A DNA stretch of 64,000 bases from contig JBBKWR010000119.1 of assembly GCA_037969055.1 (NCBI GenBank), forward strand, positions 577-64,576, read 5' to 3'. This document shows, piece by piece, positions 1 through 9,540 of this stretch. Source of the DNA: Flavobacteriaceae bacterium. Lineage in GTDB: Bacteria; Bacteroidota; Bacteroidia; Flavobacteriales; Flavobacteriaceae. Made by a program: the position numbers and the translations under genes. Every line of letters starts with the position of its first letter. Position 1 is the first letter of the stretch. The notes beneath the pieces were generated by a model, which worked only from the letters and a program-made list of their open reading frames with translations, was not told the DNA's origin and searched no databases.

Positions 1-2
1 AA

Positions 3-44
3 GATTTTGATTTATTGCTATTGAATACAACAATTAAAAAATAA
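3..44 (+). CDS. 3' end of an upstream cassette gene (partial, ...DFDLLLLNTTIKK*)
   Basis: Open frame from the window edge to TAA at 42-44, directly followed by the attC-like left boundary ACTACTGCCAAC, as in the other cassettes. Confidence 0.5.
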   Translation, partial: DFDLLLLNTTIKK

Positions 45-63
45 AAAACTACTGCCAACAATG

Positions 64-1788
64 GTAACCGTTGCGCAAGCCATTCAGGCCAAAAAAATGG
101 ATCCATATGAGCCTCTTTACGAGCCTTTTTTCTTGTCAGCTCAGAAGGGGATAGCTAATTTTCGATGCTTTACAGAAGGGCCAAATAGGAATTGAACGGT
201 ACTTTTCACCAATGCTGCCAAAGCAAGCTGTCCTACCCCGCTTTTTATTCGTTTTTGAGTGAATTTCAGGTACTTCTTCAAATTATAGGCAATAGCGGAG
301 AGGTGCATCACCTTATTGGCCTGTTCAATGCCAATAGTATTTATCTTTCTGAGACCCATGAACTGGGTCAACGTTCCGAAAACAGGTTCCACCGTGCTTT
401 GCCGCTTACCTTTCATGTACCTGCCCTGTGGACTGTTGACCCTTGCAATGTTCCGTTCATACTCCGCCCTATAATAGGTAACACTGAACTTCTTCTCCTG
501 GGCGCTCTTGCCCAAACATTGTTCTTGTACCGGGCAACCCACACAAACATGCTTTCTTGCCCGATACTCCTTCTTCCTGGTCTTGGTGCGACTGTCCAAA
601 AACTCCTTGGTAAACGGTATCACCTTGCCTTGGGGGCATAGGTAATGGTCTTCCCCTTCATTGTAGATGAAACCGTCCGGACCACCCTTGTACGTGCCAT
701 GGGGCGGTATAAAGCTCTTTAGACCTTGTTGTTCTAGATAGGCATAGTTCTCTCCGCTACTATAACCCGTATCGGCTACACAGTTTTCAAACATCAAACC
801 TTGTTGCCATAAACGACCTCTTAAGCGTTTTACGATGTCCTGTAATTGTTGGTTGTCCTTGCCGTCGGCATGGTAGGCCCTGATATCCGTTATAACATGA
901 TGGGCGGTGTCAACACTCAACTGTGAGAGATAGTTCAGCTTCCGCGCCTTGCCCGGCTTTACGCTGATACGCGCATCCGGGTCCGTGGGGCTGTAGTGTG
1001 TTTTGTTGCTCGTGTACTTGCTGCCCTTGCTGCCCGCTCCCGGCCGTTGGTCCTGGTCCTTGGCCCATTTCCTGTTCCTGCTTTTTATCGCATCCAGCTC
1101 TTTCTTGTTCGCGGTGACCCCCCGTTGCCCTTCGGGGGCCTTATCCTCCTTGGATCTTCTTATCGGCGTTTTTTTTATCCATTGCACTGATATGCCGAAT
1201 ACTGTGCAGATGGGCCTCCAGGTCTTCCCTGGGGACCTTGAGCTCCAGACTGTCCATACTCGCATTCGCCTTGACAGGGGCCGAATCGATGGCCTGGGTA
1301 TGCCCACTGACCATGCCCTTGTCAACACACATTGAAAGTACTTGGGTAAAAACCTCCTCGAATATGGTCTCCGGGAATAGCTGGCGCGTCCGGCTTATCG
1401 TACTGTGCCAAGGTAGTTCCTCGTCGATATCGTAACCTATGAAGTAAAGGATATCCAGACGCATCGAACAGTGGTCGATCAGCTTGCGGTCGCTGATAAT
1501 GTTCTCCAGATAGCCCACCAGGCACAGTTTGAAGAACACCACCGGGTCGATGCTCTTCTGGCCGCTCTCCCCATAATAATCCCTGGTAAGGGGATAGAGA
1601 AAACCCAGGTCGACGGCACCTTTCAATCGCCTGTAGAAATTAGTATCGGGTACGCGGTCACTTAATTGAAAACTATTGAACAGCTTCTCTTGATAATCCT
1701 TTTTTCCCTGCATACCTAAAGTTACGATCGATCCTTGGATCGGCAATGATCAACAAAGACTTTTTTCGCTAACTTCTGCAACAGGCAC
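64..1788 (-). mobile_element. IS1182-family insertion sequence
   Basis: Transposase plus imperfect terminal IRs GTAACCGTTGCGCAAGC (64-80) and GTGCCTGTTGCAGAAGT (1788-1772); flanked by AATG (60-63) and ATTG (1789-1792), an imperfect 4-bp duplication. Confidence 0.85.
141..1713 (-). pseudogene. IS1182-family DDE transposase, frameshifted in an A8 run (1169-1176)
   Basis: N-terminal frame has SIDP, SDRKLI, PWHSTISRTR and IDSAPVKANAS; C-terminal frame has DPDAR, ADTGYSSGEN and RQSTVEPVFG; removing one A joins them (MDKKTPIRRSK). Confidence 0.85.
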
Positions 1789-1811
1789 ATTGTATAACCG
1801 CAATTACTGCG

Positions 1812-1827
1812 TCCCGAAGCTTCGGGA
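1812..1827. repeat. Perfect 16-bp palindrome TCCCGAAGCTTCGGGA (REP-like) inside repeat A
   Basis: Read directly; related CCCGAAGTACGGG at 43730-43742. Confidence 0.6.
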
Positions 1828-1951
1828 GATTACGTCCGAATCCACTCGGAAATGCTAAAGTCAGTGCTAAACCGAAAATTAACGCATACAAACCCGTAAC
1901 TGACGGTTATACGTATTCCAAGGTCAAATCCTAATATAAATTCAATCATTT

Positions 1952-2944
1952 TTAAGCTGCAAACTGCTGTATTTCAACGTATGGCGTTCCTCTTTTAATT
2001 ACCGAAAAAGCTCTTGCCAAAATCTTATTTCTTACGTTATTTAAAGCCACCATTTTTGGCTTGCCTTCTTCTAATTTTCTTTGGTAATATAATTTGAGTT
2101 CGCTATCACATTGAATGGCACTTACACTTGCTAATGTCAATAAGGTTTTCATCTTTCTATCGCCTATATGATGAACTCTATTCCTTCGTTTTATGCTTGT
2201 ACCGGATTGATACCCAAAAGGTGCTACACCGCAGTAACTCGAAAACTGACGCCAACTCTCAAACTTCTTAAAGTTGTCGGTATGGTAAATCAATTGACAA
2301 GACAATATCAGCCCTACTCCTTTCATGCTGTTAAGTAAATCGTAATTACGTTGACTCGTCTTATGTTCCTTGACTAGCGCTATCATACGTTGCTCGATAG
2401 CATGTATTTGCTTGGTCAGATAGTGAATTGTTTTTTCAATCGTCTTACAACATAAATCTGTTGATGGACTGTTCAATAAGTTCCGTGCTTCTTTAAGTGT
2501 ACTGGTCTTACCTGTTCTATCACGTACCAGCTGTTCTCTGAAAGCTAATAACCTTCCTAGTTCTTGAAGATAGGTTTCTTTAGGACTGCTCAACTTAAGT
2601 TCTTCTTTATGAATCCATGCATATCGTGCTATCATAGCAGCATCTAGGCGGTCCGTTTTACCTCTTACGATTCCGCTTGAACGTTTTATAGCTAATGGAT
2701 TTTCTTCTATATAATCGATAGCATTCTCACTCATAAATACAGCCAAATTAGTAGAGTAATGACCTGTATCTTCAAAACAGAAAAAGTAACCGACCTTTTT
2801 TAAGTGTTGCTCTGTCCATTTTACCAATGCTACATATCCTTTGTAAGTATTGCTAAATAAGCGATGTAGGCCTCTTTTATATAAATGTGCATCTATGGTC
2901 AATTTTGATACATCAATCCCTACTACGTCTTCATATTTTTCCAT
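1952..2944 (-). CDS. IS110-family transposase/recombinase
   Basis: VGIDVSK, FEDTGHY, KTDRLDA (DEDD RuvC-like domain); GVG and YCGVAPFGYQSGTS (catalytic Ser); NNVRNK. Confidence 0.95.
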   Translation of the reverse strand: MEKYEDVVGIDVSKLTIDAHLYKRGLHRLFSNTYKGYVALVKWTEQHLKKVGYFFCFEDTGHYSTNLAVFMSENAIDYIEENPLAIKRSSGIVRGKTDRLDAAMIARYAWIHKEELKLSSPKETYLQELGRLLAFREQLVRDRTGKTSTLKEARNLLNSPSTDLCCKTIEKTIHYLTKQIHAIEQRMIALVKEHKTSQRNYDLLNSMKGVGLILSCQLIYHTDNFKKFESWRQFSSYCGVAPFGYQSGTSIKRRNRVHHIGDRKMKTLLTLASVSAIQCDSELKLYYQRKLEEGKPKMVALNNVRNKILARAFSVIKRGTPYVEIQQFAA

Positions 2945-2997
2945 ATTTTTAAAAGTTGTGACTAATTACATAGTCATGATTTATAAAATGTTGCAAT

Positions 2998-3132
2998 GAC
3001 TATTACCTTTAATAGGAGTTAAATCCTGGTATTCCAAATGGTCCTAAAGCAACCTAAGAAAGACAAGAGGACTGATACGTATAACGGAGCTGTAACTCCA
3101 AAGACCGTTTTAGTTCTCCTCTTGTTTCTTAG
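2998..3132 (-). ncRNA. IS110 bridge RNA (target-binding loop 3054-3132, donor-binding loop 2998-3043)
   Basis: Two stem/internal-loop/stem structures whose loop strands match the target flanks and the predicted circle junction; transcript ends are approximate. Confidence 0.85.
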
Positions 3133-3244
3133 TAAAGTTAACTGACTAGAAAATATACGGTTGTAAAGTAAAGGAGACCGTTGGGTCAAATTGCTTTTCT
3201 GTCCTTCAACAGCCAGCTTCGGGCTGTCGGCGCAGGCCGCACAC

Positions 3245-3367
3245 ATGACACAACAATCGCTAAAAGCAATTTGGCAAGGTTCACTTGTCTTTTAAAAATA
3301 CGCGAATAAATTCACTATTTTTAAAATCCAGAACCTCACTACGTTTAGCGGGGCGTTAGCAAACATT
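3245..3367 (+). repeat. attC-like cassette repeat B
   Basis: ATGACACAAC-AAT-CGCTAAA...TTTAGCG-GGGC-GTTAGCAAACAT, with nested stems AGGTTC/GAACCT and TTTTAAAAATA/TATTTTTAAAA. Confidence 0.8.
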
Positions 3368-3380
3368 AAAAAATAATATT

Positions 3381-4580
3381 ATGAAAAATCTGATCTTATT
3401 TTCTTCTATTATTCTCTTGATTTTTGGATGTCAACAAAATCAAACAAAATCAAGTGATTCAACTTTAAAAACTTATTTTGAATCAAGTTCAATTCCATCA
3501 GCGATTATGGGCAGCATTGATGCAGATGGAAAGACCACCTGGCATCGTTTTGGACCTTCTATTTGGGAAGATTCAACGACAGTGGTTACAGAAGATAATA
3601 TTTTTAGGATTTTTTCTATGACAAAAGCTATTACCTCTGTTGCAGCATTGCAGCTTGTTGAAAAAGGGTTAATAGGATTGGACGATCCATTGAATGAGCT
3701 AATGCCAGAAATGATAGTCATTCCTTTATTAGATGAAGATGGAAACCTAATTCATAGTGATGAAATAATTACTTTGAGACAATTACTAACTCATACATCT
3801 GGGTTTGGCAAAAAGTTCTTTCACTCTAAATTATATAATTTCAATGATGAAAATTGGTCTTACGAAGATCTACCAAGACTTTTTCAGCCAGGTACATCAT
3901 TCGCTTATGGGGACGGTTTAGTTTGGGCTGGCAAAGTTGTCGAAAAAATAAGCAACCAAGATCTGGAAACTTACTTCAGAGAGCATATTACGGGCCCTTT
4001 AAAAATGGATAATACTTGGTATAATGTGCCTAAAAACTTAAGCGAAAATATAGTAACTCTGGGGGGACGTGATTCTTTAGGAATTATTAATACCTGGGCC
4101 CGTATTCCCGAAAAACCTCAAACTGATTATAGTGGAGCTAGTAATCTATTTGCTTCACCAAGTGATTATTTAAAATTTTTGCATTGTATGATGAACTTCG
4201 GAAAGTATGAAGGAGGTCAACTGTTAAAGAAAGAAACAGTACTTCTTATGCTAAAGGATAATTTGCCAATAGGAATTAAAATCCCGAAAATTGAAGAATT
4301 CGATAACGGTGGAATAATTGGGTATACAGGGGATCATTATGTAGGACTAACAAATGACAGATGGGGATTAGCTTGGGCAATAGAAAAGGATGAAAATGAG
4401 ATTCGACCAGTTAATTCTGTTTATTGGGCAGGAGCAGCAAATTCTTATTTTACGTTAGATGTAGAGAATAAAATTGCAATTGTATATTTCTCTAATTACT
4501 TCCCATTTAACGACAAGGAGGCCTATGACTTCTATAAGCTATATGAAAAAGAAGTCTATACAGAAATTATGAATAAATAA
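3381..4580 (+). CDS. Serine hydrolase, beta-lactamase/class C-like family lipoprotein (cassette)
   Basis: Lipobox LIFGC, SxxK motif (FRIFSMTK), LLTHTSG, FAYG, WAGAANSYF. Confidence 0.85.
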   Translation: MKNLILFSSIILLIFGCQQNQTKSSDSTLKTYFESSSIPSAIMGSIDADGKTTWHRFGPSIWEDSTTVVTEDNIFRIFSMTKAITSVAALQLVEKGLIGLDDPLNELMPEMIVIPLLDEDGNLIHSDEIITLRQLLTHTSGFGKKFFHSKLYNFNDENWSYEDLPRLFQPGTSFAYGDGLVWAGKVVEKISNQDLETYFREHITGPLKMDNTWYNVPKNLSENIVTLGGRDSLGIINTWARIPEKPQTDYSGASNLFASPSDYLKFLHCMMNFGKYEGGQLLKKETVLLMLKDNLPIGIKIPKIEEFDNGGIIGYTGDHYVGLTNDRWGLAWAIEKDENEIRPVNSVYWAGAANSYFTLDVENKIAIVYFSNYFPFNDKEAYDFYKLYEKEVYTEIMNK

Positions 4581-4722
4581 CGATGTGCTAACAATGTATA
4601 TAAAAAATAGGCGAAACCGCAATAAAATTAAGGGTTTTGACTCATATAAACTTTCTGCCTAACCGAAAGTTTGGTGCTACGAAATCGCCTACTTTTCATA
4701 TACTAACCGTTAGTGGCAATGC
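4581..4722 (+). repeat. attC-like cassette repeat C
   Basis: GATGTGCTAAC-AAT-GTATATAAAAAATAGGCGA...TCGCCTACTTTTCATATAC-TAACC-GTTAGTGGCAAT; arms 17/19 complementary; inner stem AAACTTTC/GAAAGTTT. Confidence 0.9.
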
Positions 4723-4759
4723 AAAGACGTAGAAAATATTATCAAAGTAACCAGACATT

Positions 4760-6157
4760 ATGAGTCAACCAGAAAACACACCATCTGACAATAATAATAG
4801 AACGCTATCTGCAATAGAACTAAGAGATATACTGCGAAATCCACCCACAGAGTTTATAAAGGAATCACATGGAATAAAAAGCATTCTAATAAGTCGTTAT
4901 ACTATTGAAGACGAACGCCTTATATTAGATAAGAGCATCACAGTAAATTTGCCATTGATTTTTGAGGGTTGCACATTTAAATCTAAAAAGCAGTTTTTTA
5001 TAAGTGGCATAACATGTAATGAATCTTTGATTTTTAATTTCTGTACAATATCCGATTCTATCTACTTCGACAGTGGAACATTCAAAAAAGAGGTCGTGCT
5101 AAAGTATGTGCACGTAAAGTACATTCATTTATCTGACTGCACATTTGATGAAGTTAGTATCTCTGGTTACCACATTGACGAAATCTGGATGTCGGGGAGC
5201 AAATTTGAAAGTTTGAATATAGGTGAACATCTAGTTGGCGACAACATAAGCAAACTCACAATCTTTGCAGAGGAAGATGAAACAGGTGATATTACTGTTA
5301 GGGAACAGGGTTTTGATGAGATACATTTGAGTGGAACAAATAAAGGTAGAACCTTCAATTTTGAGCAAGTGAAATGCGATACTGTTTCAATAATAAATTT
5401 TAAAAATGAAGGCTCATTAAATTTTTTCGGCATCGAACCGAAAGATGTTAACAATGACAAAAGATATTTCCAGATTATCAATAGCAATTTAGACAAAGTT
5501 CAATTTTATAGAGCTCATTTCTCCCAATATAAAGAGCTCATAATTATGGACAGCTTTATTACCGACGCACTGTTTATTGGTTGTAGGTGGAGTAACAATA
5601 TAAGAGCTCTATATGGGCCAGGATATCGCACGTTTAAAGATTCCCTAAAGACTGGGCGCAAGACAACAGATACGGAGATTGTTGCTATTAAGGAAGCTTA
5701 TAGGCAACTCAAAATTTCTATGTCGAAGCATAGTGATAAGATACAGGAACATAAATTCTATTCACAAGAGTTGAATTTTCACAACAAAACATTATCATGG
5801 GAACAACCATGGACAAACCAATTTTGGGATAAAGTTATTTTATTTTTCAGCAAAACCTTTAGTGACTATGGTCAAAGCTTTATAAAACCTTTATGCTGGT
5901 TATTAGTGGGGCATTATATTCTCTTTATACTTGCGTTGCAACTTAACGGATTTGATCCCTTACACATTTCACTTTCAGAACCTACAGCGACAGGTTTTAA
6001 AGAAGCATTTGAAAAGTTTTTTATTTATATAAATCCATTAAGAAGACTGGAAACATCTCTTTCTGGTTATTTAATTCTCTTAGACTTGTTAATGAGAATC
6101 TGGTCATCATATATGATATACAATCTCATTAGGGCATCAAGACGATTCATTTCATAA
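4760..6157 (+). CDS. Pentapeptide-like/beta-solenoid protein with C-terminal membrane domain (cassette)
   Basis: Periodic xxxxF/I repeats, then AYRQLK...SDYGQSFIKPLCWLL and hydrophobic helices. Confidence 0.65.
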   Translation: MSQPENTPSDNNNRTLSAIELRDILRNPPTEFIKESHGIKSILISRYTIEDERLILDKSITVNLPLIFEGCTFKSKKQFFISGITCNESLIFNFCTISDSIYFDSGTFKKEVVLKYVHVKYIHLSDCTFDEVSISGYHIDEIWMSGSKFESLNIGEHLVGDNISKLTIFAEEDETGDITVREQGFDEIHLSGTNKGRTFNFEQVKCDTVSIINFKNEGSLNFFGIEPKDVNNDKRYFQIINSNLDKVQFYRAHFSQYKELIIMDSFITDALFIGCRWSNNIRALYGPGYRTFKDSLKTGRKTTDTEIVAIKEAYRQLKISMSKHSDKIQEHKFYSQELNFHNKTLSWEQPWTNQFWDKVILFFSKTFSDYGQSFIKPLCWLLVGHYILFILALQLNGFDPLHISLSEPTATGFKEAFEKFFIYINPLRRLETSLSGYLILLDLLMRIWSSYMIYNLIRASRRFIS

Positions 6158-6166
6158 CACAAAGTA

Positions 6167-6310
6167 GCACATGCCACTCACAATGGGTATAAAACATAGG
6201 GCGGACTGTGGTTTTCGCAAATTTTGGATTCTTAGTAAACTTAGTCTCGGTGGACAAGTAAACAAACCCGAAATGCCCTACGTTTCATACCCGAGACGTT
6301 ATGTACAAGC
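6167..6310 (+). repeat. attC-like cassette repeat D
   Basis: ATGCCACTCAC-AAT-GGGTATAAAACATAGGGC...GCCCTACGTTTCATACCC-GAGAC-GTTATGTACAA; arms 16/18 complementary. Confidence 0.88.
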
Positions 6311-6393
6311 TCCATTTCCCAATGAATTTGAACAATATCCGACGCCTAAACCAGTTAATTCTATAAATATAGAATAGTCGAAAAGACAACAAT

Positions 6394-6696
6394 ATGGATC
6401 CCAAATTAATACTCCTATTAATTGTTGGAATAGTCGGATGGTTAGTTAAATGGTCCATTTTTAATTGGAAACGAAGGAGACGGAGAAACTATTATCGTAA
6501 TATATACCTTAAATCCGATGCATGGAAAAGGAAGCGTTATGTAGTTCTAAAACGTGACAATTGGAAATGTGTTTACTGTGGTAATCGTGCAACTCAAGTA
6601 CATCATAAAAGATATGCTAAAAAAAACATAGGACGAGAACCTATTAAATGGTTGGTCTCGATATGTAAAACTTGTCATGATAATCGACATATATAA
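6394..6696 (+). CDS. Small HNH endonuclease-like protein with N-terminal TM helix (cassette)
   Basis: VLKRDNWKCVYCG, QVHH, LVSICKTCH; hydrophobic N-terminus. Confidence 0.8.
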   Translation: MDPKLILLLIVGIVGWLVKWSIFNWKRRRRRNYYRNIYLKSDAWKRKRYVVLKRDNWKCVYCGNRATQVHHKRYAKKNIGREPIKWLVSICKTCHDNRHI

Positions 6697-6700
6697 AATA

Positions 6701-6748
6701 AGCCATGCACATCAATGGCAATAAGTAATTGCTATGTTCTAGCCTACA
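6701..6748 (+). repeat. Degenerate/truncated cassette repeat E (left part only)
   Basis: GCCATGCACATC-AAT-GGCAATAAGTAATTGC directly after the HNH stop codon; partly complementary to the cassette start GTTATGTACAAGC; no right arm found. Confidence 0.5.
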
Positions 6749-6835
6749 CAAGTATATTAATCGTAATCAGACTTTTGCCCCCAATTCCCATACCTAAAAG
6801 CTTTACACTAAAACCCAAGTAGGTCCGTTATTTAA

Positions 6836-7090
6836 TTGATGGATAACGTTATCAGAAATATCTTACCCAAATATTCAAGAGTATTTGGTTTTGTCCTCAC
6901 GTTCTTGATCTTCACCTCACATATTCCTGTTGATTTTTCCAATGTGTATATATGCAAGGGAAAGTACAGTAAGAAATATCATTACAGTAAGTCTTGTAGA
7001 GGATTGTCCAATTGCTCAACCAAAGTATACGAAGTAGAATTAAGTGAGGCCAAAAGGATAGGTAGGACCCTTTGTGGTTGGGAGGATTAG
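6836..7090 (+). CDS. Small Cys/His-rich putative metal-binding exported protein
   Basis: Hydrophobic N-terminus, then VYIC...YH...C..L..C...GRTLC; convergent with the integrase. Confidence 0.65.
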   Translation: MMDNVIRNILPKYSRVFGFVLTFLIFTSHIPVDFSNVYICKGKYSKKYHYSKSCRGLSNCSTKVYEVELSEAKRIGRTLCGWED

Positions 7091-7093
7091 CCA

Positions 7094-8812
7094 TTATTTA
7101 TTCTTAAGAAATCCAAATGGTTTTTTTATCAAGTTATAATCAAACGTTTCCACATCCGAATACTTACTAAACTCTGTTTTCATCCTATGATATATCTTTA
7201 ATGGTTGTTTTCCGAAGTCTTTCAAAAAGTACTCCTTTTTGGAGCCTAAATCCAATGCACCATAATATCTTGACCCTATCATAAATTCCATTGGGGGTAT
7301 GGGTATATAGAACTCTATTTTTATTTTTAGAGGTACTGCGTGGTAGTCAATTGTTATTCTTTTGATGTACTTTGCCACCATTGCTGATTTTTCCTCAAAA
7401 GGTAAGTTTTCAATTATGGTTTTTTTATTTTCCGCAAGCACCCTATTTTTTACTATTTTTTGCATGCTAGCATCAAAGTACTCCTTTATGAAAGGGTCTG
7501 ATAAATCTACCCATTGCTCGAACAGATTGAATTTAAAGTCATTTTCTAACTCTACTAGTACCCTATTGCCATTTACAAGCTTTTCTAGTTCGACAGCTAT
7601 TTCCCGAAGTGTTTCATCGGTTTTATAAGCTTGGTCATCTATCCTTTTTTTCTCAGCTCTATACGTTCCTATATAACCCCCCTCCTTAACAAATAGCTGA
7701 TGGTTTCTTTTTGTTTCTATCTTTAGCTGTTCATGCTTCTTTAAGTGGTACTCCTGTTTTTTCTCCAGTACTTTCTTTTGCCCTGTATTTCCCCCCGCCT
7801 GATAGGTTTGCTTTGCTTGCTCGTACAGTTCTTGACCAAGGAGTATTTTCTCAAAAATAAGCTTATCTATTGCCCAAGCCCTAACGGCTTTACTTCCGCA
7901 TTTTGGTATACCTCTATTTACTTCGCTCAAGCACCTGTAGTAAGAATGTCTATGCCTTTGTGAAACGGTATACCGTGTACCACATTTAGCACAAAACATA
8001 ACCTCATTTAAAATATACTTTTTTGATTTGCTCCCAGGTTTTTTGTACCTCTTCCCGATGCTTTCAATTACCTTATCGTGTGTATGCTTATCGATTATGG
8101 GGGGGACTACTTCTAATTCTAATTCATTGTGCTTTACCCTTCCTGAATAGGTTTTATTATATATCATATACCTAATGGTTGCAGGAGTCCATTCGATATC
8201 GTACCGTGTTTCAATACCCATTTCGTTGAGATGTTTAGCAATCCTTATATATCCGTATCCTTTTTGGTACAAATCAAAGATGGTTTTAACTGTCTCTAAT
8301 TCCCCAGGATGTATTTTCCATTTGCCTTTATCGTCCGTGGTGTAACCATAGGGGGTTAAGCCATGGGGAATTCCCTCCATTGCATTACGTCTTAGTACTG
8401 TTTGTATCTTCTTAGCTGTTATACGGGCAAAATGTGCGTCCATCCCCGCTTTTATCGTGTAGAATAGGTACGTGTTTTCATCGCTGAAATCATTTTCTAC
8501 ACCGTTATCGTACAGTAAAGTACCTGTTTCCCGTAAAAGGTCGGCAAATGTATGCCATGATATTTCATTTCGTGCCAGTCGGGAACTATCCCATATAAAC
8601 ACCCCTTTAATTTCCTTTTTCCTAATATCAATTAGCAATTCGGCAAATTTGGGTCGTTGTTCCTCGGACTTTTGACCGCTGATTATTCCCTCATCGTAAA
8701 ATTTATATGACATTTCTTTGTCGAGGGCGAACTCCTGACCTAGCAACCGTTGCTCTTTTAGACTCTTCTCCTTTGCCCTGTCCCTGCTCTTTCGGATGTA
8801 TATTGCTAACAT
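7094..8812 (-). CDS. Large serine recombinase (integrase)
   Basis: YIRKS catalytic motif, DSSRLARN, PYGY recombinase domain, Zn ribbon (CAKCG...YYRC...C), coiled coil. Confidence 0.93.
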   Translation of the reverse strand: MLAIYIRKSRDRAKEKSLKEQRLLGQEFALDKEMSYKFYDEGIISGQKSEEQRPKFAELLIDIRKKEIKGVFIWDSSRLARNEISWHTFADLLRETGTLLYDNGVENDFSDENTYLFYTIKAGMDAHFARITAKKIQTVLRRNAMEGIPHGLTPYGYTTDDKGKWKIHPGELETVKTIFDLYQKGYGYIRIAKHLNEMGIETRYDIEWTPATIRYMIYNKTYSGRVKHNELELEVVPPIIDKHTHDKVIESIGKRYKKPGSKSKKYILNEVMFCAKCGTRYTVSQRHRHSYYRCLSEVNRGIPKCGSKAVRAWAIDKLIFEKILLGQELYEQAKQTYQAGGNTGQKKVLEKKQEYHLKKHEQLKIETKRNHQLFVKEGGYIGTYRAEKKRIDDQAYKTDETLREIAVELEKLVNGNRVLVELENDFKFNLFEQWVDLSDPFIKEYFDASMQKIVKNRVLAENKKTIIENLPFEEKSAMVAKYIKRITIDYHAVPLKIKIEFYIPIPPMEFMIGSRYYGALDLGSKKEYFLKDFGKQPLKIYHRMKTEFSKYSDVETFDYNLIKKPFGFLKNK

Positions 8813-8850: not shown

Positions 8851-9417
8851 TTAGCCACTCCAATGGTTCCATTGCGGTCTACCATCCAACATTTTGTTCA
8901 TCGGTAGCCCATTGATCAATACTTCTCCATAACGCCCATCATAGCCCCGTACCCGAAAAAAAGCCTGTCCAAAATCGAATGCTGCGCGTTTTAAAAACAC
9001 ATCCCTCGTGGCCTGGAGCAAACCTGTATGCACCGAAGCGCCAACGACTTCGTCTAATTCTGAATCGGTCAGGGTAATCAGGTTATCATGCTGCTCCAGA
9101 ACAATATCCTTTTCAAGAAGGATCAACCCCAAAAGTAAGGTGTCATTTTCAAAACGTACCGGCATCCGTTTGGCAAGGTACTCGGGCGCGGAAATGTTTA
9201 AAATAAAGGCGCCCCAACTATCGGCATCAAGTATGAAAGTCCCATCTGCGTTTGGTTCTACAGTAAGGGTGGTTTCTTCCACTGCAACGATACCGTTTGC
9301 CACAGCTTTTTTTGTGCGTGCATCCACTATGGTTCCTTGCACCACCGAATAACTTTGACCTAGCAGGGATGAAAGTAAAAAGAAGAAAAAATATGTAAAA
9401 TATAGAAAACGCATTTT
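8851..9417 (-). pseudogene. 5' fragment of a TonB-dependent receptor (carboxypeptidase-regulatory-like domain plus start of plug), interrupted by the element
   Basis: Signal peptide, VQGTIVDA, FFRVRGYD...VLING..MNK..DGRPQW; stops at the element boundary with no beta-barrel. Confidence 0.8.
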
Positions 9418-9540
9418 ATCAAATGGTGTTGGTAACGAATTTTTCAAATTTAAATGGGCAACCTGCACAACACTTGCAGCAATGAAAATTAAATTGCGGC
9501 ATTTTCCATCGTGGGGACCAATTCAACGATTTTAGACGTG

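Follow-up and report, generated by a model that had tools for sequence, protein, structure and literature searches.

A decayed integron-like cassette array in a Flavobacteriaceae genome and a candidate recombinase family lacking the IntI insertion

What moves the single genes that line up, with hairpins between them, at one end of a contig from a Flavobacteriaceae bacterium (assembly GCA_037969055.1, contig JBBKWR010000119.1, here C119)? The stretch analysed, called the window below, is 64,000 nt long and covers positions 577–64,576 of the 65,066 nt of C119, in a genome of 457 contigs that is 85% complete; to the left of the window the array continues for 576 nt, up to the contig end. A first-pass annotation, made from the letters alone, had proposed an integron-like gene-cassette array at 48–6748. 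We find that an array of swappable cassettes is real, and partly decayed. The window very probably holds the tail of an integron-like mobile array with AAC...GTT sites. Its cassettes are likely shuffled in trans by a tyrosine recombinase of Bacteroidota without the I2 insertion of integron integrases (IntI), an enzyme predicted to cut the folded bottom strand at GTT.

The array comprises the following features (letters A–E are those of the first-pass annotation; ORF, open reading frame; IS, insertion sequence; aa, amino acids).

1–44, plus strand: 79-aa ORF (3′ end only), gene of the cassette closed by site A; no Pfam match.
57–63, plus strand: left core of site A, AAC plus four bases that are likely the target duplication of the IS1182 element.
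64–1788, minus strand: IS1182-family element directly behind the AAC core of site A; transposase in overlapping frames 141–1328 and 1141–1746.
1789–1912, plus strand: both arms and variable middle of site A, flanked by the two insertion sequences.
1913–3173, minus strand: IS110-family element that separates the right arm of site A from its spacer; transposase 1952–2944.
3174–3182, plus strand: right spacer and GTT of site A; GTT 3180–3182 is the presumed crossover.
3180–3354, plus strand: ORF-less cassette, 175 nt; 6/7 bases of its start agree with the 5′ end of site B.
3252–3357, plus strand: site B, a short variant of 106 nt from AAC 3252 to GTT 3355–3357, with a right spacer of 4 nt.
3355–4708, plus strand: hydrolase cassette; ORF 3381–4580, a 399-aa serine hydrolase of the beta-lactamase fold (PF00144).
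4590–4711, plus strand: site C, intact, 122 nt.
4709–6297, plus strand: cassette with a 465-aa orphan ORF (4760–6157); no match in Pfam or NCBIfam.
6179–6300, plus strand: site D, arms intact, 122 nt; CAC replaces AAC.
6298–6703, plus strand: last cassette; 100-aa HNH-type ORF 6394–6696 (PF01844, E 3.5e-4, just below its cut-off).
About 6704–6732, plus strand: site E, a dead left half, its core two bases short and the right arm absent.

The imperfect hairpins A–D, the truncated E and the CAC of D lie where the first-pass annotation had placed them. The core is followed by three bases, AAT, in all five sites, and the right arm stands 4–6 nt from GTT. With a covariance model trained on 52 sites from other genomes, E values are 1.9e-13 for site C, 1e-11 for D, 0.048 for B and 0.72 for the middle segment of A; elsewhere in the 64-kb window no score falls below E 1.9. 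In the own genome the model gave at least 14 matches at E 0.01, with 150 of 2136 candidates scored. Bottom-strand folds agree (z against shuffles −3.6 for B, −3.5 for C and −2.5 for D), and each beats its own top strand. A plain repeat search of the window showed little because the sites diverge in sequence, and Rfam searches yielded no family at gathering score across the window and four chance matches in 1–7200. Three further claims stand in part. Sites had been put within ~15 nt of a stop codon, which holds for distances of 12, 9 and 14 nt, the other one being 21 nt; each had been put behind a gene, which holds except for site B behind the ORF-less cassette; and about 3 kb of the proposed span are the two antisense insertion sequences inside site A. 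Site A thus runs from AAC 57 to GTT 3180–3182 and measures ~136 nt once they are removed. A contig of run X6 joins 1912 to 3174 and so carries site A free of the IS110 element.

Integron sites pair through their 5′ end with the beginning of the cassette they belong to, since the two stem from one circle. The bases before the core match the start of their own cassette at 6/7 positions for the ORF-less cassette, 6/7 for the hydrolase and 7/7 for the 465-aa gene. Across 178 distinct cassettes of related loci the mean own-end match was 6.1/7, compared with 2.6 for the next cassette and 2.5 at random; the own end matched better than the next cassette in 157, worse in 13 and equally in 8. An ORF lies on the plus strand in 145 of 183 cassettes and on the minus strand in 3, while 35 have none of 60 aa. 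Cassettes also change neighbours. The hydrolase cassette recurs, with 2–3 differences in 629–829 nt, in sediment contigs of runs X2 and X3, which belong to one study. Its 5′ break there falls exactly at GTT 3355, with foreign sequence before it and another cassette after site C. Capture and shuffling, as the first-pass annotation had suggested, are supported by own-end complementarity, by the changed neighbours of the hydrolase cassette and by the first cassettes of the recombinase loci treated below, 60 of 63 of which are distinct. Cassettes joined at a GTT core, and a site 5′ end complementary to the start of its own cassette, are features shared with classical integrons; the exact bond within GTT is unreadable from sequence.

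GC content of the cassette genes is 33–34% compared with 42% in the remainder of the window. For the hydrolase, the best NCBIfam match is esterase AcmB, under its cut-off, and no resistance family was reached; a search of 15 congeners did not find its DNA. For the 465-aa gene, 300 family genomes gave no match at E 1e-30.

We then turn to the enzyme. The own genome has 13 tyrosine recombinase matches, two of them of one family: an intact one of 375 aa on contig C422 and one on contig C245 that a frameshift splits. A GTT follows both genes within ~60 nt, and on C245 a complete cassette whose ends match 10/10 comes after it. From close relatives of this family 80 loci were taken, of which two with a missing gene end were dropped, leaving 78. 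In the 80 loci the sequence past the stop codon is alike as far as a GTT and divergent beyond. The arrays are co-oriented with the recombinase gene and begin 38–76 nt past it, at a short attI-like hairpin with a GTT; the hairpin, 5–7 nt before GTT, was called in 64/78 loci, and its 41 distinct sequences are all self-complementary. Downstream of the gene, 175 sites on the recombinase strand lie in 345 kb, compared with 5 in 679 kb upstream (78 loci). The sequence before the hydrolase cassette in X2/X3 is the commonest attI-like hairpin of the recombinase loci, plus its spacer, which ties the window's cassette to that site. A tyrosine recombinase with intact catalytic residues by an attI-like site is thus found at C422 and at 64/78 related loci, and not beside the window's array. 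Upstream of the attI-like site, a word like the Bacteroidota −7 promoter element occurs in 40/64 loci, mostly at one place inside the coding sequence; the full promoter pattern was found in 0/64.

In 76/80 close loci a divergent 126-aa gene stands upstream of the recombinase (at C422, L023:1545–1925); it encodes a CxxC-type zinc motif, matches DUF2116 weakly and is possibly a regulator or accessory factor. One Maribacter chromosome has four copies (L038, L045, L049, L050) of the module of divergent gene, recombinase and attI, 96–99.9% identical and in unrelated places, three of which share a 2.5-kb unit with a small serine resolvase; the recombinase-attI platform itself seems mobile.

The C422 protein retains all catalytic residues (R235, K260, H324, R327, H350 and Y359), and its closest relatives are in Maribacter, Arenibacter and Cellulophaga. 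It lacks the IntI insertion: 60–66 residues separate two catalytic landmarks in 39 family rows (63 in the candidate), compared with 105 in 21 IntI rows, and it scores 210 bits against a cut-off of 265 with the IntI model TIGR02249. In a structural comparison it is closest to archaeal XerA, with IntI4 (VchIntIA, PDB 2a3v) among the closest solved structures over two separate stretches. All IntI fall on one side of a branch with support 99, and no member of the array family lies inside; the tree is a quick one with SH-aLRT support only, in which deeper forks, including array family versus IntI, are unsettled. The genome's own XerC and XerD are separate from the array recombinase. The family further has an extra N-terminal domain of ~80 residues. 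In the model of the protein, which reaches pLDDT 80.6 from an alignment (36 from the single sequence), residues 5–78 align with the N-terminal domain of T4 UvsW (Z 7.0, root-mean-square deviation 2.0 over 62 residues) and with N-terminal parts of XPB (Z 5.8–5.9). Pfam HARP (PF07443) matches 7/60 relatives at E up to 1, the best at 1.7e-7 (residues 30–68), with one above cut-off; a profile search of solved structures with the domain gave no HARP protein. HARP-like N-terminal domains of UvsW and XPB bind forked or mismatched DNA. At 20 hand-picked distant loci, which are kin and not independent, sites lie behind 9/10 long forms compared with 2/10 short ones, and the tenth long-form locus ends 149 nt past the gene. 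Tandem HARP repeats in long relatives were considered and dropped: Pfam gave no support in six scanned, three of which show a doubled SAM-like domain. A phage collection held no relative of the recombinase at E 1e-45. Where the first-pass annotation had left the recombinase unnamed, the C422/C245 protein is now, judged by its sequence and position, a strong candidate for the array enzyme.

The sites themselves follow one layout (171 distinct sites): AAC, 3 nt, a stem of ~16–18 bp, a variable middle, 4–7 nt and GTT. Core halves are 59–221 nt apart, and lengths cluster at 120–127 and 183–192 nt. No bulge is present in 143 of the 171, an extra base on the right arm in 23 and on the left arm in 5. 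At stem positions 7 and 12, A stands opposite C on the top strand, which is G.T on the bottom strand, in 59–81% and 74–90% of sites; at position 12 the G.T pair reaches 90% and 74% in the two main site classes. A G adjoins the right core in 98% of sites. Arms covary, with 13/19 pairs changing on both sides and a covariation of 0.46 compared with 0.11 when shuffled and at most 0.10 when slid, and the bottom strand is the more stable in 147/170. Structure is therefore conserved without sequence and the bottom strand favoured, as in classical attC, on sites that were selected for pairing. In the classical L-box register, however, 190 sites average 2.6/7 pairs with a maximum of 5, whereas aadA1 attC of R100 has 7/7. 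RYYYAAC fits 9 and GTTRRRY 12 of 194 sites, and neither fits B, C or D; of the classical consensus RYYYAAC...GTTRRRY the sites keep only AAC/GTT and the next purine. A covariance model of these sites does not find the attC sites of R100. Because the classical L-box layout is absent, a distinct Bacteroidota site type outside the attC layout is supported, in line with what the first-pass annotation had suspected. The extrahelical bases of classical attC sit on the left arm, and sites lacking these bases are reported to remain able to recombine, with weaker strand choice (PMC2727003), which makes a bulge-free substrate plausible; a G next to the right core is likewise reported for attC in that paper.

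The same architecture surrounds known resistance genes. Among the best plasmid hits of the recombinase is the ‘xerD’/TnpF gene beside tet(X3) (50 Acinetobacter records out of 237). TnpF groups with the array recombinases in the tree, and behind it come a hairpin, 7 nt, GTT, tet(X3) and a cut half-site. Among the best 40 of 65 records, 7 plasmid rows, from Sphingobacterium, Empedobacter, Bacteroides, Riemerella and one Acinetobacter, start matching the tet(X3) region at, or one base before, the G of GTT; an eighth, partial row starts later. Four such plasmids carry tet(X2) flanked by two full sites, with a 10/10 match of its ends and with differing neighbours. A 10-base own-end match is also seen for aadS, blaOXA-347 and lnu(H) and, antisense, for ereD and catB, and on Riemerella plasmid pRCAD0416RA-1 the site that follows estT shares 107/122 bases with site C of the window. 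As an observation apart, catB and ereD (L182, L183, L184) run antisense to the array and so need promoters of their own.

An experiment from another group bears on this. In Riemerella, aph(3′)-IVb integrates without homology after natural transformation, together with 27 nt upstream and 140 nt downstream; an attC-like stem-loop behind the gene is noted and the mechanism left open (PMC13148043). On pRCAD0416RA-1, whose 262-aa APH(3′) gene we equate with aph(3′)-IVb by length and strain name, both reported unit ends fall between the two T's of GTT cores, and the own-end match is 9 bases. The experiment is independent support for movement of one GTT-to-GTT unit, the enzyme not being identified by it. 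Three points appear to be new on these comparisons: tet(X2), aadS, ereD, blaOXA-347, lnu(H), catB and estT are cassettes of this site type; the ‘xerD’ beside tet(X3) belongs to the array recombinase family; and the published homology-free integration spans exactly one GTT-to-GTT cassette. The presence of ‘xerD’ next to tet(X) has been noted, with no cassette reading in the available text of PMC7473080, PMC11194056 and PMC7494873. A literature search, whose coverage leaves out most subscription journals, gave no account of this system beyond PMC13148043.

The mechanism that we propose starts from four things visible in the sequences: each cassette runs from GTT to GTT; the 7 bases before the AAC of its site complement its own start, such that the full site forms in the circle; arrays begin at the attI-like hairpin and GTT, 38–76 nt past the recombinase gene and in its direction; and one cassette can stand beside different neighbours. 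The predicted cut by the recombinase falls at GTT, on the folded bottom strand of each site. That the bottom strand is the substrate is probable. Whether the unpaired spacers, 3 nt on one side and 5–7 nt on the other, together with the two fixed G.T pairs, set strand and direction in place of extrahelical bases is a proposal that we hold in even balance, and somewhat more tentatively the N-terminal HARP-like domain may read the junction of single and double strand in place of the I2 helix.

Several observations weigh against this reading. Position alone links the recombinase to the sites; the enzyme is absent from C119, and the C245 copy is split. Within the family, 6/59 site-bearing genomes have no recombinase match at E 1e-70, including the single-contig genome of a congener (G219) that holds 19 sites, and two of the ten short relatives mentioned above have sites behind them despite lacking the N-terminal domain. 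The N-terminal fold match is in the tool's middling range, and the C422 protein itself has no Pfam HARP match. The site scan required a 3-nt left spacer and pairing, which biases the pairing and layout counts to that layout. A 74% relative of the hydrolase gene (1/60 relatives) is without flanking sites, and no cassette circle was seen in assembled contigs.

The same cassettes and recombinase family could also be accommodated if the sites recombined as double-stranded DNA or via host XerCD, as pdif modules and phage CTX do, so that the hairpin would not be the substrate of a dedicated enzyme. An enzyme without I2 and structurally closest to XerA, the many bulge-free sites and the genomes that have sites but no recombinase match are all compatible with this, and the folded strand of CTX is recombined by XerCD without I2 or extrahelical bases (PMC4792948). 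We nevertheless regard it as improbable: core halves 59–221 nt apart, mostly in sites of 120–127 or 183–192 nt, are far beyond an Xer core, the arms covary, and the arrays begin right behind a recombinase gene distinct from the genome's XerC and XerD.

A dedicated recombinase acting on folded sites is also preferred over an ordinary cluster of attC sites lacking an integrase (CALIN) that is served by a canonical IntI elsewhere, which we consider very unlikely. The GTT/AAC core, the G by the right core, the bottom-strand bias and the targeting by insertion sequences are attC-like, and on C119 at least two co-oriented sites do stand without an integrase nearby, but the array leaves the contig on the side where a recombinase is expected. 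No site out of 190 reaches 6/7 pairs in the L-box register, in which aadA1 attC reaches 7, and the covariance model misses the attC sites of R100. A search for IntI above the TIGR02249 cut-off found none in the own genome, which is 85% complete, or in any of 22 genomes of the family. In other classes of the phylum canonical IntI is frequent (90/301 genomes over cut-off; of 91 listed, one in the same class), and the two integrase types look largely divided by class. Some genomes, such as G015, carry both. One complete integron in Bacteroidetes proper, in Salinibacter, and almost none in the group are reported in PMC9024848. The sites described here, by comparison, occur in 59/60 Flavobacteriaceae genomes, with up to 57 candidates scored in each, and 53 of those 60 have the recombinase; the sole site-less genome is also without it. 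Orphan arrays are probably common.

Next to the array lies the end of a larger element.

6836–7090, plus strand: 84-aa ORF just after site E, with no site behind; island cargo, not a cassette.
7094–8812, minus strand: large serine recombinase (PF00239, PF07508, PF13408), likely the integrase of the island holding the array.
8851–9468, minus strand: 5′ part of an outer-membrane receptor-like gene, cut by the island at ~8860; its 3′ part begins at C313:359.

The receptor-like gene is uncut, as frames of 909–943 aa, in 13/15 congeners, and its uncut junction is present in one contig of run X6. With island ends at ~8860 and C313:359, the array lies inside the island, and it runs off the contig on the recombinase's expected side. 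The serine-integrase island likely carried the array to its present locus. No recombinase lies within the 360 nt of C313, which bears the other island end, and none of the tyrosine array family adjoins the array on C119. The serine recombinase is the only recombinase adjoining the array, and could be taken for its assembler; this is most improbable, because the island of this enzyme ends in the receptor gene and no relative of it occurs in 100 loci of the array tyrosine recombinase, many with arrays. Equally remote is the reading of the palindromes as selfish repeats (like miniature inverted-repeat transposable elements or repetitive extragenic palindromes) or as terminators behind acquired genes by chance, given that sites, although numerous, placed after stop codons and attractive to insertion sequences, would on that reading explain neither the complementarity to the far 5′ end of the same gene nor plasmid homology starting exactly at the G of GTT.

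The array in the window is decaying, with site A blocked by two insertion sequences and site E dead. All 8 left-end matches of the IS1182 element in the own genome and the 80 loci sit four bases past the AAC core of a site, and 6/8 right-end matches are followed by a left arm (at sites: window 64–1788; C339, C60, C424; L027, L041, L046, L077, L080). This element targets these sites. For IS110, 1/4 of the other copies in the own genome abuts a site half, and targeting is not clear. In classical attC, site-targeting IS110 elements and group II introns are known. On the Chryseobacterium plasmid NZ_CP041688 (L106) five sites stand behind the recombinase, and the array contains an IS110 and a group II intron, both antisense. 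A 1770-nt contig of run X1 departs from the window at the AAC of site C (4592) into other sequence, probably through another element inserted in site C in a related population. The ORF-less cassette contains a 12-nt inverted repeat between its own start and the left arm of site B, and has relatives in runs X1 and X6. A 112-nt X1 contig with a loose end like the reverse complement of the right end of site B plus the start of this cassette was left unused, its orientation misfitting a simple circle. On C384 of the own genome (L015:814–1407) a HigBA-like toxin–antitoxin pair, named from its sequence, lies between two sites, as such pairs do in Vibrio chromosomal arrays.

Compared with classical integrons (class 1 and the Vibrio cholerae chromosomal one), one-gene GTT-to-GTT cassettes, the AAC...GTT core, own-end complementarity, structure over sequence, bottom-strand bias and a simple tyrosine recombinase beside an attI-like entry site are shared. 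Here, however, there is no IntI insertion but an extra N-terminal HARP-like domain, spacers are 3 nt (left) and 4–7 nt (right), the left arm has no extrahelical base but the stem has two fixed G.T pairs, attI is a near-perfect hairpin, and the recombinase gene is co-oriented with the cassettes. The system works like an integron but lacks two of its defining traits, the IntI insertion and the attC layout, and is therefore filed apart. As in a CALIN (PMC4889954, PMC9024848, in the parts available), the window's array is decaying, at a contig end and without an integrase beside it, but its sites fall outside the attC layout and a candidate recombinase of another family lies elsewhere in the genome. 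The integrase gene also runs in the cassette direction in ‘inverted’-integrase integrons of Treponema and others (accessible text of PMC4889954), although those enzymes are IntI proteins and the candidate is outside the IntI clade. The Riemerella anatipestifer aph(3′)-IVb stem-loop is of the same site family and its integrating unit is one GTT-to-GTT cassette, while the available part of PMC13148043 names no recombinase, attI, site consensus or array. TnpF beside tet(X3) and tet(X5) falls in the array-recombinase group and has the hairpin, GTT and tet(X3) behind it, but it is treated as XerD of unknown role in the sections at hand of PMC7473080, PMC7494873 and PMC11194056; the Acinetobacter copy is N-terminally shorter and the site behind tet(X3) is cut. 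XerA or XerCD on dif and phage CTX are likewise simple I2-less tyrosine recombinases, CTX using a folded strand, but here a dedicated gene heads the cassette arrays and the genome's XerC and XerD are separate.

The window's own array is merely a decayed example. A major gene-shuffling system nevertheless appears to have been overlooked in Flavobacteriaceae, when its spread through the family is set against the surveys, as far as the available text of PMC9024848 goes. We think it likely that Bacteroidota run a second kind of integron, with a HARP-fused I2-less recombinase, a hairpin attI and bulge-free folded sites, present in most Flavobacteriaceae, lying outside the IntI profile used by surveys, and having built the resistance clusters of Riemerella, Empedobacter, Sphingobacterium and Bacteroides, with xerD-tet(X3) on Acinetobacter plasmids as a captured integron head. 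This offers a testable answer to the role of ‘xerD’ beside tet(X) (PMC7473080) and to the homology-free integration in Riemerella (PMC13148043), and a marker for surveillance, given that the ends of Bacteroidota resistance genes can identify them as cassettes. How the I2 helix and extrahelical bases arose together has been described as a chicken-and-egg problem (PMC4792948, in the part available); if the reading is true, these arrays would provide a living example of folded-strand recombination that does without the I2 helix.

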